A stretch of 59,442 nt of DNA, counting the filler, from Ionaspis alba (Eukaryota): NCBI GenBank assembly GCA_964255285.1. It is 2 parts of 2 records of this genome, joined end to end, with 100 filler letters (N's around TTAATTAATTAA, not from the genome) between each part and the next. Parts side by side here need not be neighbours in the genome. Positions count along the whole stretch, not along the records: positions 1 to 29,736 come from CAXUUL010000120.1; 1 more part is not named here. The stretch is one strand, 5' to 3'. Below are positions 5,036 through 10,313 of this stretch, one piece after another. The notes beneath the pieces are model-generated. The model ran no database searches and was not told the DNA's origin. It saw only the letters and a list, made by a program, of their open reading frames with translations. The translations under genes were made by a program, and so were the position numbers. The first letter of the stretch is position 1; every line of letters begins with the position of its first letter.

Positions 5036-5438
5036 ATGTCAGCATCGTTAGCGCCTGAATGTAACGAGGTCAAAGAGTGGGTATCGTTTGTTATCAGTCT
5101 ATGAGGACTACCGCTGATGATTTTAGGCGTTATGATTCCTGCTTCTTGAAATGGTATAGCGAGAGTACGGGAAGCTTTGCTTTCCATGAAGTAAAAACAC
5201 TAATTTGCACTTTAGAATACCTTCGCGGCAACTCCGTCACTGATGAGTGCGAGCCGCTTTTCAAAGACTACAAGGCTTGCCTGACGGTAAGTGATATGGT
5301 CAAGTTTATTCATTCGATTTGGAACTCATGGCTGCCTAGAAAGCACTCAAGGACAGAGGGATCGATACGATGCTGGAGGAGGCGAGAGAAAACAACAAAG
5401 AGCACGAAGCTCAAAGTATGAGACGAGGCTCCAAATAG
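5036..5438 (+). CDS. MDM35: Mitochondrial intermembrane-space twin-Cx9C protein Mdm35
   Basis: Four exons splice to MSASLAPECNEVKERYDSCFLKWYSEKYLRGNSVTDECEPLFKDYKACLTKALKDRGIDTMLEEARENNKEHEAQSMRRGSK. Divergent from RRP6. Confidence 0.93.
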
Positions 5439-6080
5439 CTAGCATTTCTCTGGCGTGATGGAGTTCCAAGTAGTAGATTGGTAGGGAGGAGGTCATCGGC
5501 TGCAAAACGCATCCAGCATTCCACTCTTTATAGAATTGTAATAGTGGCCGTTTTCGATCGAATTTTCTCCACAATGCTTGGAGGAATATGATCGTAATAG
5601 AAACATCCTGTCCTTTCGCATGAGATCCAAGTTGACAGTCTTCCCAACCTCGAATACCATTTGCAGTGGCTTGAAAGCGGTTTCTCAGTTCCGAGGCACA
5701 CGCTTGGCCAAAAGAGCTGCCGACGCTTCAGCAAGCAAATAACCCGACCGAACCAGGGGAGCCAATCGGAGTTCGTGGAGCAGGCCGGACCAAAAGCTTG
5801 AGTGTAACAAGATACCAATAATAATATCGCGCCTCTATTTTGTTTGCTCTGATTGATCTACACAACGAGTCCAGAGACTGCGATCATTTCGAATCTAAAT
5901 AGTGCCTGCTGCCTCAAAGGCATGGCAAGATCTTATGTTACGCCGTTGAGATAGGCTCTAAATCTCACTTTCCAAGGTCTCGATCACTACGTTCCACCAA
6001 GTCGAATGATGTTCGAATGGCTAATGCAACGACAGAGATCCTCCTCTGCGTGGGCTCAGTCCAAATCATAGTACAAATTC

Positions 6081-6467
6081 ATGCACCCCTTCTCGGTTCT
6101 TACACTTGGAATCTTTGTCGCTGGCTACATTACCGCACGTTGGGATCTGGTGACAAGGCTATACGAGCTCGCCATATTCGCCTGGGATCACGGAGTTGTT
6201 GTACGTCAAATACGTTGTAATTATGTGGTTGGAAGCGAGGCGCTCATTTGGTGTAGAAAACAGATGACAAAGTATAATAAAAAAAAAAAATCTTCTTTTT
6301 CCTGTTCATAATCCCCGTGGAAAGGGTGGCGGCACGGGAGTCCACAGAGGTATTATCATTTTGTCCCCTTTCCACAAGAACATCCTACTAATGGATAACA
6401 GCACCCTAGATCGATTGAAAGTGGAATTTCCGCACGTGAACAGCTGAGGCGCAGGGGTTCCTTTTAG
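6081..6467 (+). CDS. Small (~92 aa) hydrophobic protein immediately upstream of GPI1; exon 2 has two in-frame TAA codons in an A-rich patch
   Basis: Exons 6081-6200, 6257-6349 and 6402-6467 with canonical introns. Translation: MHPFSVLTLGIFVAGYITARWDLVTRLYELAIFAWDHGVV|KTDDKV**KKKIFFFLFIIPVERVAARESTE|HPRSIESGISAREQLRRRGSF*. Confidence 0.7.
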
Positions 6468-6483
6468 TATTGACCATGATATT

Positions 6484-8770
6484 ATGGTTGACGGAGATGG
6501 GCTTTTGAGGATATTCTGGCCCTCGGATACACCTCGAACCAAGAGACAGGGAACGATTGTGGGCTGGAAGAACTCGCAGCTAGACTTTTTTGTTGTGACT
6601 GTTCTGCAAGATGTTGAGGTATCTTGGTCTTGAATTTAAGCTTCTACACTGTCTGACCAGTCCTGTTAGCCACGAAATGTCGAGAACGCATTATGCGTGG
6701 GTACCCTATATCGATATAGCCAGCATCCAATCGAGCGCATATTTCGAAGATGTGGAAAATCGTCAATGGATGTACTGGGCTCAACCAACCCACCCACCAA
6801 ACCTTCCGCATTCGACCCTTCGAAACTGCATGCTTACACCGATCCTGCATGGAAATTCCCACAAATATTCTGCCCCAGTAAAAGCAGCATTTCCATCCAG
6901 GTGATAATGTTTGATAGACCTTCTCCTATTTGGATGCAATATATGTCCTTAGATCCCATATCTCTGGCCTTGGGTAATCAGCCAGTCGACGGATTACTAC
7001 CAACTGCCGTTCCTGACGATGCTTCTAAAGCCCACCTCGTGCGCAAGCTTCGATTACACACTGTCGTCCGACATTCACCGTCTCAGATGGAACTCGTTCT
7101 ACCAGAAGTGCTGACTCAGATCAATTGTTCTTCTGAGATAGCCCAACTGCTCCAGAAGAACATCAGCCGGATTGGAAATCGTCAGAAAAGGAGTTTGAGC
7201 GTCAGTGAAAGAGTTGTCGAATCTGCGAGTACGATTTGGAGCTACATTCTTGTAGGCTTGTGGCATGTCGTGACCGTTTGGATATACCCAATTTTGACAC
7301 GAGCGTTTGTCATCGGCCTCATCTGCCATCGAGTTGTGGCGGAAATCGTGCTACAGGTGCTAGAATGGCGAATCAGCCCGGAGTCGGCTGCATTGAAAGA
7401 TGTCTCCGCCACAGCTCAGCAGGTTGATATACGACTTCAGCAGTTCTGCTACTGGCCGATTCAGTATACGACTCTGCGGAAAAGAAAGGACGACTGGGAT
7501 AGCTTCACGGATAGTCATCCAGACTATATCCGATTTTACAACAGCCTGTGGCTAGTCGCCAATGATGTGATCATCGGTATCGCCCTAGGGTCTTACATCA
7601 TTGATAATGCCGACTGGGTTGCGCTACAGATCAATGGAGTGCTCACCAATTGGACTGTAAAGGGCTTGCAAGGCATGATCGTGTGGTTGACGGATTGGCC
7701 TGCCGGTCTGAAACTAAATAACGAGCTCGCAAGTTTCCTTGGTGACTTGTTTCTCTGGGTCATCGAGTACTGGTCAAGTATACTTTTTCTGACTTGGCAC
7801 CATCAGCCGGCATACTGACCGAATACAGATTGCGTGGACAACTTTCGCCCAGTGCTACCCCATGTCATCTACTTCATAGGCTTCTCAAGCTTCGCCGGAG
7901 CCAGCATGCCAATCGCTCTCTTCTCAGACCTTCTCTCCCTTCTTACGATTCATATCTACTCGTTCTACGTCGCATCGGCTCGAATATATCATTGGCAATT
8001 GACTATAATCATTTCTCTCTTCCACCTCTTTCGCGGCAAGAAAAAAAATGTTTTACGAAACCGGATAGACTCATGCGACTATGACCTAGATCAGCTTCTG
8101 TTGGGGACTATACTTTTCACCTTGTTGTTCTTTCTATTACCCACTGTACTAGTCTTCTACTTCACATTTGCATCAGCGAGGATGGCCATCATATCTCTCA
8201 AGGCGGCCTTGGATACCTTGCTTACTTGTCTGAATCATTTCCCGCTCTTTGCATTGATGTTGAGGGTGAAAGACTCACGGCGGCTGCCAGGTAGGTTCTT
8301 GCTACATGACTGAGACTGTACCTTGCTAAGATCTCCAGGTGGTATCTGTTTCGAACTCCGTGATGCCCCTTCTCACCCATCATGGATCCTAAACAACAAA
8401 GAGAATCCTCCCACGTCCTACGTTCTTCTCAAGGTAGGCTCTATCCACGACTTCAACAACTGTCGATGCTGACTCATTACCACAGTCTGTGCCTTTGTCA
8501 CTGAGAGCCATGTTTGACCAATACTTCCAGCTCGGACAGCGACTGCGAGAGCATTACCTGTCGGCCAGAGTGGTGTATTATCTTGCCACTGGGCAATTCA
8601 TACCGCCGATACATCGAAAGAATCTCTACAGCCTTCAGTACAGCATGTTACCGGCACGCCGTGCCGAGATCAGAGAAGTATGGAATCGGCTGACCGAGGG
8701 GAAGCCACTGCCAAATGGTGGTATAGCCAAGATCCCCAACGGCCTTCCTGCTAGACACTTCCGCCGTTGA
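6484..8770 (+). CDS. GPI1: GPI-GlcNAc transferase subunit Gpi1 (PIG-Q)
   Basis: N-terminus MVDGDGLLRIFWPSD...GTIVGW. Gpi1 motifs YIRFYNSLWLVANDVIIG, WPAGLKLNNEL, LFRGKKKNVLRNRIDSCDYDLDQLLLGT. Four introns (about 6619-6669, 7778-7828, 8291-8338, 8434-8485). Confidence 0.96.
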
Positions 8771-9209: not shown

Positions 9210-10313
9210 CTACCCAGCTCCGCCGCAGCAAAACTCCCCACACCCGGCACACCTCCTTGCCGCATCCTTCCTTGCTAGATTCTCCCTGCCGCCCAGCTCC
9301 CGCAAACAAACACACATCCTCCCGACAAGCATGGCCTCGATCTTCCCTTCATTCACCCGTACACCTAGCACTCCCCGCCTGTACTCCTCTTCAATTTCCA
9401 GCTTCACGTTCACAGTCCTCAATTCTCTCAGACGACAATCAAAGCACAACCACTTCTCTTCCCGTCTCTTCCCCTCCGTCGTCGGATTGCTGACGGGACA
9501 TCGACACCCGAGGTATAGGTATAGCGTGGGATGCTGCTGCTTGGCCGTTTGGCTGCAGAGTGGGCAGAGCGGGAGCAGCGGCGACTCGAGCAGCTTTGGC
9601 CAATGTTTCTCTAGATGGTGGTGGCCAATGCAGGCGCACTCCTCGCATACCGTTGGGACTCCCTCTTCATGTGCCGCGCCATTCTCGCATGGTCGTACTT
9701 TGCCGCGGTGTTGTGATTCTGGTGAGCTAGCGCCCAGCGGCTTACGCGAAGCGCCAGTCCAGGACCAGGGTGAGGGATACAAGAAGTTGGATGGATCTTC
9801 GGTACATTGTGAGCTCTGGCTGTGCTCCATGTCTGAGCCTCGGCGAGCGACATGTTTACCGAAGCGGGCGTGATCGCAGACTGGTGGTGTCACTGGACGT
9901 TGCACCTCGGTGGCGACTGGCCGGGACGGTAGGATAGCTGGTAGTGTTGGTCGTGTTGAGCGTGTGACAGGGAGCTTGGGTGGGTAGAATTTGTGGACCT
10001 TGGGGAGGAGGGGCACAGAGAAGGTCACGGACGCTGCTTGCTGGCTTTTGAGGGCGGGGTGGAAGCTGGGAGAACGGATTGGTGAGCCGGAAGGACTGCT
10101 CAGAATTTCGTCGACCAGGGTTGCGTCCGAGCTTGGGTGGTCAGTGTTGAGGTACGGAAAGCAGGGCATTTTACGGGAGTGAGGGAGCTGGCTCCAGCTT
10201 CCTGATCTCTTCATGGTGGTATTGTGGATGGGATGGTCGAGAGTGTGTGCTAGGTGATTGCGATGTGAGTCGTTCACAGTCAACGTTTCCTGGTTTCTGC
10301 CATGATCGGCCAT
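9210..10313 (-). CDS. Hypothetical protein, Pro/Ser-rich N-terminus and Cys-rich C-terminus
   Basis: 367-aa uninterrupted ORF with clustered CxxC/CxC motifs (CEEC, CPLC, CRC, WLCFDC, CVC, CAGC). Confidence 0.55.
   Translation of the reverse strand: MADHGRNQETLTVNDSHRNHLAHTLDHPIHNTTMKRSGSWSQLPHSRKMPCFPYLNTDHPSSDATLVDEILSSPSGSPIRSPSFHPALKSQQAASVTFSVPLLPKVHKFYPPKLPVTRSTRPTLPAILPSRPVATEVQRPVTPPVCDHARFGKHVARRGSDMEHSQSSQCTEDPSNFLYPSPWSWTGASRKPLGASSPESQHRGKVRPCENGAAHEEGVPTVCEECACIGHHHLEKHWPKLLESPLLPLCPLCSQTAKQQHPTLYLYLGCRCPVSNPTTEGKRREEKWLCFDCRLRELRTVNVKLEIEEEYRRGVLGVRVNEGKIEAMLVGRMCVCLRELGGRENLARKDAARRCAGCGEFCCGGAG

Follow-up and report, generated by a model that had tools for sequence, protein, structure and literature searches.

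Conserved nuclear genes that are functionally bicistronic are, to our knowledge, rare in eukaryotes. The human PYURF(PreY)-PIGY mRNA is reportedly bicistronic: in the description attributed to Murakami et al. 2005, the subunit of the GPI-GlcNAc transferase (GPI-GnT) is said to be the small downstream ORF, and the upstream product to be unrelated. Conserved-peptide uORFs, among them the one for the fungal arginine attenuator peptide in arg-2/CPA1, have about 24 codons and no introns, and encode soluble peptides that stall the ribosome.

The PYURF-PIGY arrangement is not mentioned in PMC4599673. For the polycistronic ORF35-36-37 mRNA of KSHV, PMC3561293 describes experiments in which a short uORF beside or across the start of the first cistron lowers the use of that cistron and permits re-initiation downstream. 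Long-read sequencing has yielded polycistronic transcripts with two same-strand ORFs in fungi, including Pezizomycotina, according to PMC4503453 and 10.1101/2021.11.08.467853; the Fusarium screen in the latter demanded ORFs of 100 aa, which means that an ORF of 92 aa would go uncounted. In Neurospora, Kozak context and leaky scanning are in wide use, as described in PMC7049704. A literature search returned no paper on the peptide described here or on a bicistronic GPI1 (the supplementary tables of two Iso-Seq preprints aside), and PMC12810187 does not mention polycistronic mRNAs.

In this study we followed up a sequence-only reading of a stretch of DNA from Ionaspis alba (the window, 59,442 nt in its full length, filler included), in which a small ORF had been seen directly ahead of GPI1 and one mRNA had been proposed for both. 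We consider it reasonably probable that the micropeptide and GPI1 form a conserved bicistronic mRNA, the products of which are apportioned by leaky scanning together with uORF-mediated bypass.

The locus in Ionaspis alba

The features of the locus are collected in Table 1. The micropeptide start codon at 6081, its stop at 6467, the C-terminal RRRGSF and the GPI1 ATG at 6484, all named by the sequence-only reading, were found in the sequence, and the short out-of-frame ORF that it had noticed at 6476 over the GPI1 start is likewise present, with 10 codons. The identity of the downstream gene is given by the Gpi1 domain (Pfam PF05024), matched with E 7.9e-40 by positions 6766-7815 and with E 1.6e-60 by positions 7906-8310, which together cover profile positions 1-265, and by 75.6% identity over 303 aa to the Gpi1 of Lasallia pustulata. 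The GPI1 introns beyond the first are placed only approximately, and the end at 8770 is taken from the last long ORF.

Table 1. Features of the micropeptide-GPI1 locus, with positions counted along the window.
Feature	Positions	Strand	Description
MDM35/UPF0203-like upstream neighbour	5101..5421	+	PF05254, E 6.5e-9; outside the unit, used as spacing control
uORF	6006..6071	+	21 codons, with more in-frame ATGs at 6009 and 6024; closes with TAG, 9 nt ahead of the micropeptide start codon
Micropeptide exon 1	6081..6200	+	40 codons; first hydrophobic helix and amphipathic helix (predicted); 90-100% identity to relatives
Intron 1	6201..6256	+	56 nt, GTACGT...GTGTAG; position as intron 1 of relatives
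Micropeptide exon 2	6257..6349	+	31 codons; second hydrophobic helix (predicted); two in-frame stops in the window copy
Anomalous A-rich patch	6258..6289	.	21 of 32 places unlike public contigs of the same DNA
Intron 2	6350..6401	+	52 nt, GTATTA...TAACAG, with CTAAT branch-like motif; position as intron 2 of relatives
Micropeptide exon 3	6402..6467	+	21 codons plus TAG (6465-6467); basic tail with the end RRRGSF
Spacer from micropeptide stop to GPI1 ATG	6468..6483	+	16 nt
Out-of-frame ORF across the GPI1 start	6476..6508	+	10 codons
GPI1 exon 1	6484..6618	+	45 codons, reads M..LLRIFWP..; ATG with A at -3 and G at +4
GPI1 intron 1	6619..6669	+	51 nt; conserved position near codon 46 (break at codon 45-47 in relatives)
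GPI1 remainder	6670..8770	+	ORFs 6766-7818, 7906-8313 and 8510-8770; ends with the last long ORF

The three-exon ORF of about 92 codons that had been described for this locus proved right for the organism and wrong for the window as served, where the frame is not open with the exon boundaries of the family: exon 2 (6257-6349) contains a run of A and two in-frame TAA codons (6275-6280), a break in the middle exon that the sequence-only reading had passed over. An open frame is in itself weak evidence here, since 406 GT..AG models with one or two introns stay open from the ATG at 6081 to the stop at 6467. A search of public sequencing runs for this DNA listed no RNA run, and two runs that contain it as contigs. 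These contigs (X1 of 2855 nt at depth 120, and X2 of 256 nt) differ from the window by 21 mismatches, all of them within 6258-6289 and with zero indels, and over 5916-6700 X1 is identical to the window outside this patch. From window to X1, the letter changes are A>C (8), A>T (7), A>G (2), C>G (2) and T>G (2). With the contig letters, exon 2 is open by hand translation (31 codons), starts with TR.AKGF and, in agreement with the family consensus, encodes the second hydrophobic helix.

Most probably, then, the broken exon 2 reflects a mistake in the window sequence or a change made to it. That the micropeptide gene is a pseudogene in this organism, its exon 2 being truly broken as the two TAA codons and the A-run might indicate, we regard as very improbable, given that contigs of two public runs contradict the window at 21 places, that the window shows no damage to exons 1 and 3, to the splice sites or to the spacing, and that 17 of the 21 changes go towards A, which is unlike the decay of one exon.

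Conservation of the micropeptide and of its distance from GPI1

Relatives of the micropeptide in the databases number 1025 at E<=0.01, and a profile search of about 1.84 billion representatives gave 257 matches at E<=0.001, 217 of them at E<=1e-10. Fifteen of the 21 relatives that were fetched are exactly 92 aa long and have the same three parts; among non-redundant gene models the length of 92 aa is found in 45/49 and both introns in 32/49, with an intron-less peptide gene in 14/49 lineages, and the exon sizes are 120/93/66 nt in most relatives. Several genomes annotate the peptide as a separate 92-aa protein. When 14 members were aligned, the mean column identity was 84%, columns 1-40 (exon 1) being nearly invariant, while in the tail HPR and SAREQL.RRGSF are invariant or nearly so and the stop directly after F92 is kept. 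Synonymous sites are saturated (median pS 0.75), as against a pN of 0.17 overall and 0.09 in exon 1.

On these comparative grounds, positions 6081-6467 constitute a real three-exon gene for a 92-residue predicted membrane micropeptide kept across filamentous ascomycetes, and the micropeptide, as judged from its substitution pattern, is under strong purifying selection. The check on relatives and on selection proposed by the sequence-only reading gave conserved GPI1-linked homologues and a low pN beside saturated pS.

Hydropathy peaks at residues 4-18 and 47-61, and AF2 places helices at 3-18, 21-36 and 39-71 (mean pLDDT 82); the basic tail ending in RRRGSF is probably cytosolic. Known families and structures gave no counterpart. 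None of the 14 members matched any Pfam family at E<=1 (hmmscan against Pfam-A), and neither exon 1 of the window nor a 76-aa ORF gave a useful Pfam match. A profile search of the PDB with the micropeptide returned a single chance match (E 1.4), Foldseek found 0 matches to it in the PDB, and a wide structure search (VIA) reached at best Z 5.2 at rmsd 10, on generic helices and with no likeness to a solved structure; the ESM Atlas held nothing beyond the family's own clusters, which are labelled 'pig-Q'. A PDB search with Gpi1 likewise gave 0 matches. A complex prediction for the micropeptide and the Gpi1 of contig L012, made without alignments or controls, gave no usable score (0.00) and speaks neither for nor against binding.

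The micropeptide and GPI1 are both conserved at the protein level, and so is their proximity. In 73 of 80 related metagenomic loci (70 of 74 modelled loci, and in addition L063, L064 and L041) the peptide stop lies 6-63 nt before the GPI1 ATG, the other 7 ending too early to tell, and in none of the 80 were the micropeptide and GPI1 found apart. The occurrence of similar peptides beside GPI1 in other Pezizomycotina, which the sequence-only reading had put forward, is thereby established more strongly than it had been stated. The median spacer is 19 nt both in the 70 loci measured in one pass and in 47 non-redundant loci, in 46 of which it does not exceed 32 nt although its sequence and length otherwise vary freely; it shows no frame preference (length modulo 3 distributed 23/18/6). 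By comparison, the MDM35-like neighbour, found upstream in 17/32 relatives, is 615-967 nt away. These loci present two conserved same-strand ORFs so close together that no terminator and promoter would fit between them, as is expected of a bicistronic mRNA.

Among the matches listed, 64 of 120 longer database proteins fuse the N-terminus of the peptide to the Gpi1 domain, and the genera of these fused models belong to what we take to be six classes of Pezizomycotina. Such models could be read to mean that the small ORF is the true N-terminus of Gpi1, joined to it by splicing or by stop-codon read-through. We find this scarcely credible: in the 8 models that were read the junctions differ from one another and the conserved tail is skipped, whereas the tail and the stop after F92 are conserved in the family, the spacer has no preferred frame, and Gpi1 keeps its own N-terminal motif, M-x(4-8)-LMRIFWP, at its own ATG in relatives.

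Transcripts and start-codon contexts

Three contigs from relatives carry both ORFs in a form that would be expected of a transcript. The first, L022 (1811 nt), begins with a leader of 191 nt, followed by the peptide ORF, 6 nt of spacer and 446 GPI1 codons. The related genomic locus L037 has three GT..AG introns, of 60, 48 and 59 nt, and exactly these are missing from L022; the peptides of the two differ at 1 of 91 residues. The other two, L012 (2623 nt) and L027 (2868 nt), are mRNA-sized and have both ORFs uninterrupted, with leaders of 69 and 293 nt and with 49 and 104 nt after the GPI1 stop. We infer from their form that all three derive from RNA, as assembled contigs and not as single molecules. 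Among the relatives there were no near-identical (>=93%) pairs of cDNA and genomic contigs, L022 and L037 being paired at lower identity. The lack of introns in L012, L027 and L011 is not decisive, because intron-less GPI1 occurs at some genomic loci (L062, L071 and L072) and intron-less peptide genes also exist.

The start codons of the two ORFs stand in opposite contexts. At -3, the micropeptide ATG has a pyrimidine (T or C) in 49/49 relatives and the GPI1 ATG a purine (G or A) in 42/47. An ATG is present no more than 60 nt upstream of the micropeptide in 40/48 non-redundant relatives, compared with 25.6 +/- 3.2 (maximum 35) in 500 shuffles of the leaders; its commonest positions are -25 (16 relatives) and -16 (7 relatives), and in 37/40 it has a purine at -3. 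Of the 76 ATGs located between the micropeptide and GPI1 starts, 55 have a pyrimidine at -3 and 53 start ORFs that reach no further than the GPI1 ATG. The spacer itself holds an ATG in 23/47 non-redundant relatives, in the form ATGA.AT.ATGG in those closest to the window. In the window, A stands at -3 of the ATG at 6009 within the uORF; the micropeptide ATG is preceded by T at -3 and followed by C at +4.

Two overlapping but separate units could also account for the contigs. Transcription of GPI1 would then begin at a site of its own within the micropeptide gene, and the micropeptide mRNA would receive its poly(A) tail within GPI1; the spacing would stay tight for no other reason than that the upstream gene contains the GPI1 promoter and leader. 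Compact fungal genomes often have overlapping transcripts, and assembly from short reads can merge them into false polycistronic ones, according to 10.1101/2023.04.26.537486; L012, L022 and L027 are thus no proof of single molecules. We nevertheless hold this arrangement to be unlikely. It leaves unexplained why the spacer stays so short while its sequence and length vary, and why the peptide AUG, always with a pyrimidine at -3, is flanked upstream and at GPI1 by AUGs that mostly have a purine there, and it would put the 3' UTR and poly(A) signal of the peptide mRNA within conserved GPI1 coding sequence. The single mRNA for both products that the sequence-only reading had proposed gains indirect support, from the contigs of relatives (one spliced, two mRNA-sized) and from the start-context pattern. 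That both ORFs may be translated from it is likewise indicated indirectly, by the purifying selection on each of them and by the same contexts.

If the unit is indeed bicistronic, both ORFs would ride one spliced, capped mRNA and ribosomes would be divided between them by start-codon context. A short uORF in good context is located just before the micropeptide AUG or overlaps it, the micropeptide AUG is invariably in poor context, and the GPI1 AUG is the next one in good context. Ribosomes could arrive at GPI1 by either of two routes: by leaky scanning past the weak AUGs, or by translating the uORF, skipping the micropeptide AUG and re-initiating downstream. Both the 92-codon ORF and the overlapping uORFs of 33 codons are long for efficient re-initiation, which counts against the re-initiation model.

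A test for the avoidance of AUGs, as pure leaky scanning would have it, showed no depletion: the peptide ORFs hold 56 out-of-frame ATGs, and synonymous shuffling gives 58.9 +/- 5.5. At least one such ATG, which leaky scanners must pass, is found in 42/49 peptide genes.

It may further be asked whether the small ORF functions purely in cis, throttling GPI1 translation as a conserved-peptide uORF, with no role for its product as a free protein. Its place would be in the GPI1 leader, 6-63 nt separate its end from the main AUG, and the encoded peptide is conserved, all of which fits the pattern of such uORFs. On the other hand, conservation extends over all 92 residues, taking in the two hydrophobic helices and running through the C-terminal RRGSF to the stop, the gene contains introns, several genomes annotate its product as a protein in its own right, and the weak start context argues for a dosed product over a strong barrier. 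We consequently judge an action in cis only to be quite improbable.

Comparison with known systems

Should the micropeptide and GPI1 be expressed from one mRNA as we suppose, a bicistronic unit would have been kept across a whole subphylum of fungi, and the locus would make a clean natural model in which to study how two cistrons share scanning ribosomes. The locus also brings to light an uncharacterised membrane protein with no Pfam family, linked genetically to the first, essential step of GPI-anchor synthesis, a pathway relevant to fungal cell walls and to antifungal work. Many public annotations in which the peptide is fused to Gpi1, or in which 92-aa proteins are named 'PIG-Q', need correcting.

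A more far-reaching and doubtful suggestion is that the GPI-GlcNAc transferase of Pezizomycotina may have the 92-residue protein as a subunit or regulator of its own, so far unrecognised, in the position that Eri1/PIG-Y or DPM2 fills in yeasts and animals. Made from the same ER-bound mRNA as Gpi1, it might co-assemble with it during synthesis, in a ratio set by a three-tier switch of start codons (uORF, weak AUG and strong AUG). Pfam contains models for PIG-Y and DPM2, and at E<=1 the 14 members searched by hmmscan against Pfam-A resembled PIG-Y, Eri1 and DPM2 neither in sequence nor by profile. In its hydropathy and in the AF2 prediction, the micropeptide is a small protein with two membrane helices, as PIG-Y/Eri1 is. 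It resembles PIG-Y/Eri1, DPM2 and PIG-P, as these are described in PMC12182360 and PMC7125958, in having fewer than 100 residues, two hydrophobic helices (a predicted hairpin) and an ER-type topology, and its genetic linkage to a GPI-GnT subunit is in keeping with the setting of the small subunits. Unlike them, it matches no Pfam family and no solved structure, and its association with the enzyme is putative.

With the human PYURF-PIGY unit, the locus has in common that a gene of the first GPI enzyme would share its mRNA with a second small ORF and that one of the products is a small membrane protein with two (here predicted) helices. It differs in that the small ORF lies upstream, the downstream product being the large subunit Gpi1/PIG-Q, and no sequence likeness was found. 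As in the arg-2/CPA1 uORF, an ORF with a conserved peptide precedes the main ORF on the same strand, and the peptide is conserved to the degree expected of this class (mean column identity of 84% in 14 sequences); in contrast to that uORF, the micropeptide ORF has 92 codons and two introns, encodes predicted membrane helices, and appears in annotations as a protein of its own.

The layout of the KSHV ORF35-36-37 mRNA, as given in PMC3561293, is that of the upstream AUG at -25/-16, the weak peptide AUG and the strong GPI1 AUG described here. The KSHV case is viral and shown experimentally, whereas the mechanism at GPI1 is read from a conserved sequence pattern alone, and the first cistron at GPI1, unlike that of KSHV, is a conserved membrane peptide followed by a spacer of only 6-63 nt. 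The polycistronic transcripts seen in fungal long reads are, in PMC4503453 and 10.1101/2021.11.08.467853, mostly read-through products of genes that are also transcribed alone, in contrast with the micropeptide and GPI1, whose spacing of 6-63 nt is conserved across classes.

Gene layout and the anomalous middle exon

The sequence-only reading of this locus had placed a spliced micropeptide directly before GPI1, which encodes the PIG-Q subunit of GPI-GlcNAc transferase (GPI-GnT), and its coordinates proved correct: the start codon lies at 6081, the stop of ...RRRGSF-TAG at 6465-6467 and the GPI1 ATG at 6484, leaving a 16-nt spacer, while a 10-codon out-of-frame ORF from the ATG at 6476 spans the GPI1 start. 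Translation from 6484 gives the GPI1 N-terminus M..LLRIFWP.., and ORFs downstream match the Pfam Gpi1 domain PF05024 (E 7.9e-40 and 1.6e-60). As 406 distinct one- or two-intron GT..AG models are open between the ATG at 6081 and the stop at 6467, an open spliced frame alone carries no evidential weight; the exon sizes (120/93/66 nt) were set by relatives. Downstream of GPI1, a 367-codon ORF occupies the opposite strand (9210-10313, minus).

Features of the micropeptide locus in the window
Feature	Position	Strand	Basis or boundary sequence
MDM35/UPF0203-like gene, upstream	5101-5421	+	PF05254, E 6.5e-9
Micropeptide exon 1	6081-6200	+	exon structure of relatives
Micropeptide intron 1	between 6200 and 6257	+	GTACGT..GTGTAG
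Micropeptide exon 2	6257-6349	+	exon structure of relatives
Micropeptide intron 2	between 6349 and 6402	+	GTATTA..TAACAG
Micropeptide exon 3	6402-6467	+	exon structure of relatives

Exon 2 of the window contains a pair of TAA codons in frame, together with an A-run, so that the proposed 92-codon three-exon ORF is not literally open there; it is open with the letters of contigs from two public sequencing runs, X1 and X2, that include this DNA and were compared over 5900-6700. The X1 contig (2855 nt, depth 120) and the X2 contig (256 nt) each show 21 mismatches and no indels, all within a 32-nt A-rich patch at 6258-6289 where the window letter is A at 17 of the 21 sites, the X1 contig being otherwise identical across 5916-6700. 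Both runs come from a single study, possibly including the window's own source. With the contig letters, exon 2 by hand translation is open over 31 codons, with the TR.AKGF start and second hydrophobic helix of the family. Since exon 2 is open in the contigs, the patch looks like an error (of assembly or consensus) or alteration of the window sequence, and a pseudogene reading was rejected.

A conserved gene abutting GPI1

That the micropeptide gene is genuine and its abutment to GPI1 conserved can be regarded as practically certain. A search with the unspliced 76-aa ORF finds 1025 matching proteins (E<=0.01); over the first ~42 residues, most of the 120 matches listed show 90-100% identity. 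Among 21 relatives retrieved, 15 are exactly 92 aa long with the same three parts, and the remaining 6 models are either unspliced or spliced incorrectly. Mean column identity across 14 aligned members is 84%, residues 1-40 being nearly invariant. In 990 pairs among 45 non-redundant coding sequences, median pS is 0.75 (saturated) versus a pN of 0.17 (0.09 in exon 1), so constraint acts on the protein. With 257 matches at E<=0.001 among 1.84 billion representatives, 217 of which reach E<=1e-10, a search by profile points to a tight family. No Pfam family matches it, no solved structure resembles it by sequence or by fold, and the ESM Atlas returned solely the family's own clusters, auto-named 'pig-Q'. 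Both introns are lost in 14 of 49 non-redundant relatives (metagenome contigs L001, L005, L008, L012, L015, L017, L020, L023 and others) and one in 3; another contig (L041:3501-3773) encodes a 90-residue variant that has RRGSC in place of RRGSF at its end and lies 30 nt before the GPI1 ATG.

The link to GPI1, for which the sequence-only reading had suggested looking, recurs throughout. Our metagenome contig scan, recognising the GPI1 start by M-x(4-8)-LMRIFWP, retained 80 loci, of which 74 could be modelled; the GPI1 ATG lies 6-63 nt after the micropeptide stop in 70 of these and also in L063, L064 and L041 (73 of 80 in total). The other 7 contigs end inside the micropeptide gene or 18-63 nt past its stop, and in none of the 80 loci are the two genes apart. 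The spacer has a median of 19 nt and is <=32 nt in 46 of 47 non-redundant loci; its length modulo 3 is spread 23/18/6, hence no frame link is indicated. An MDM35-like gene lies 615-967 nt upstream in 17 of the 32 loci with enough flank, a distance showing that the tight spacing is specific to the micropeptide-GPI1 pair. The order MDM35 - micropeptide - GPI1 is recurrent, and in several Sordariomycetes it has also been merged into single gene models.

The ORF matches 303 proteins of more than 133 aa. Of the 120 listed, 64 have a Gpi1 domain, being models in which the micropeptide N-terminus is fused to Gpi1, and 8 an MDM35-type domain (PF05254); we place the species named among the fusions in the Eurotio-, Dothideo-, Sordario-, Leotio-, Lecanoro- and Xylonomycetes. 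Because the junctions differ in all 8 models compared and skip the conserved tail in each, the fusions are as expected of gene-predictor artefacts. Public records are thus misannotated in these variably joined entries; elsewhere the micropeptide is called 'hypothetical' or bears 'PIG-Q' as a borrowed name, and numerous 92-aa proteins and fragments of 52-96 aa are labelled 'phosphatidylinositol glycan class Q' or 'pig-Q'.

The encoded protein

Hydropathy peaks at residues 4-18 and 47-61, and AlphaFold2 with 24 sequences predicts helices at 3-18, 21-36, 39-71 and 82-88 (mean pLDDT 82). The tail (64-93) has a net charge of +3.4 and, by the positive-inside rule, should be cytosolic. Its C-terminal RRGSF is invariant and is a basophilic-kinase consensus (PKA-type RRxS); a resemblance to arginine-based ER-retrieval signals beside a C-terminal 14-3-3 site is no more than a lead. 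The yeast GPI-GnT subunit Eri1 communicates with Ras/cAMP-PKA signalling. Small two-helix hairpin subunits of GPI-GnT are described, namely PIG-Y, DPM2 and PIG-P (PMC12182360, PMC7125958). Together these make a GPI-GnT role attractive, a putative function that we hold to be possible but doubtful.

Transcription and translation of the pair

Contig L022 (1811 nt) comprises a 191-nt leader, the micropeptide ORF, a 6-nt spacer and 446 GPI1 codons. Relative to the genomic locus L037 it is without exactly three GT..AG introns (60, 48 and 59 nt), the micropeptides differing at 1 of 91 residues and the DNA being 80-86% identical; given this precise absence, L022 looks like a spliced mRNA form. Both ORFs are also uninterrupted in L012 (2623 nt) and L027 (2868 nt), with 69 and 293 nt before the micropeptide ATG and 49 and 104 nt after the GPI1 stop. 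We infer the RNA origin of these three contigs, and in some genomic loci GPI1 or the micropeptide gene is itself intron-less. Assemblies can fuse overlapping transcripts (10.1101/2023.04.26.537486), and separate overlapping transcripts for the two genes are the main rival explanation, which we judge unlikely; the preferred reading, and a probable one, is a shared mRNA whose translation is controlled by start-codon context. GPI1 introns near codons 46, 422, 576 and 612 have been gained or lost among lineages, and two contigs (L050, L051) have ~644 and ~241 nt extra inside the GPI1 coding region by tblastn with Gpi1, stretches that large introns or an insertion could account for.

At the micropeptide ATG, position -3 is a pyrimidine in all 49 non-redundant loci (T 41, C 8); at the GPI1 ATG it is G or A in 42 of 47. 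An ATG <=60 nt upstream of the micropeptide ATG is present in 40 of 48 loci versus 25.6 +/- 3.2 (max 35) in 500 shuffles. Its commonest positions are -25 (16 loci) and -16 (7 loci), and in 37 of the 40 a purine precedes it at -3. It opens a mini-ORF terminating ~10 nt before the micropeptide ATG in 26 loci, as does the window uORF (6006-6071, ending 9 nt before 6081), and in 14 an ORF overlapping that ATG and terminating at +86. ATGs between the two starts occupy a small number of set positions; of 76, 55 have a pyrimidine at -3 and 53 open an ORF ending no later than the GPI1 ATG. One, out of frame at spliced position 82-84 (codons Y28-E29, TAT-GAG), is shared by 39 of 47 relatives, its -3 base being T in every case, and overlaps the TGA that terminates the overlapping uORFs at +86; the window, with TAC at Y28, is without it. 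Out-of-frame ATGs are not depleted in the micropeptide ORF (56 observed, 58.9 expected).

This strong-weak-strong pattern fits leaky scanning, in which ribosomes would pass the weak micropeptide AUG to reach that of GPI1, as well as a uORF that would send ribosomes past the micropeptide cistron to re-initiate at GPI1. Leaky scanning is prominent in Neurospora (PMC7049704).

Neither the micropeptide nor a bicistronic GPI1 is described in the literature that our search returned. Long-read studies of Fusarium and Zymoseptoria report polycistronic transcripts and leave the GPI1 locus unnamed in their main text (10.1101/2021.11.08.467853, 10.1101/2023.04.26.537486), the Fusarium screen having an ORF minimum of 100 aa (10.1101/2021.11.08.467853). 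The micropeptide-GPI1 unit would belong to a known class, that of conserved bicistronic eukaryotic genes. In a herpesviral mRNA, a uORF has been reported to divert ribosomes beyond the first cistron so that they re-initiate at the second (PMC3561293); the bypass demonstrated there is one that we infer for the micropeptide and GPI1.
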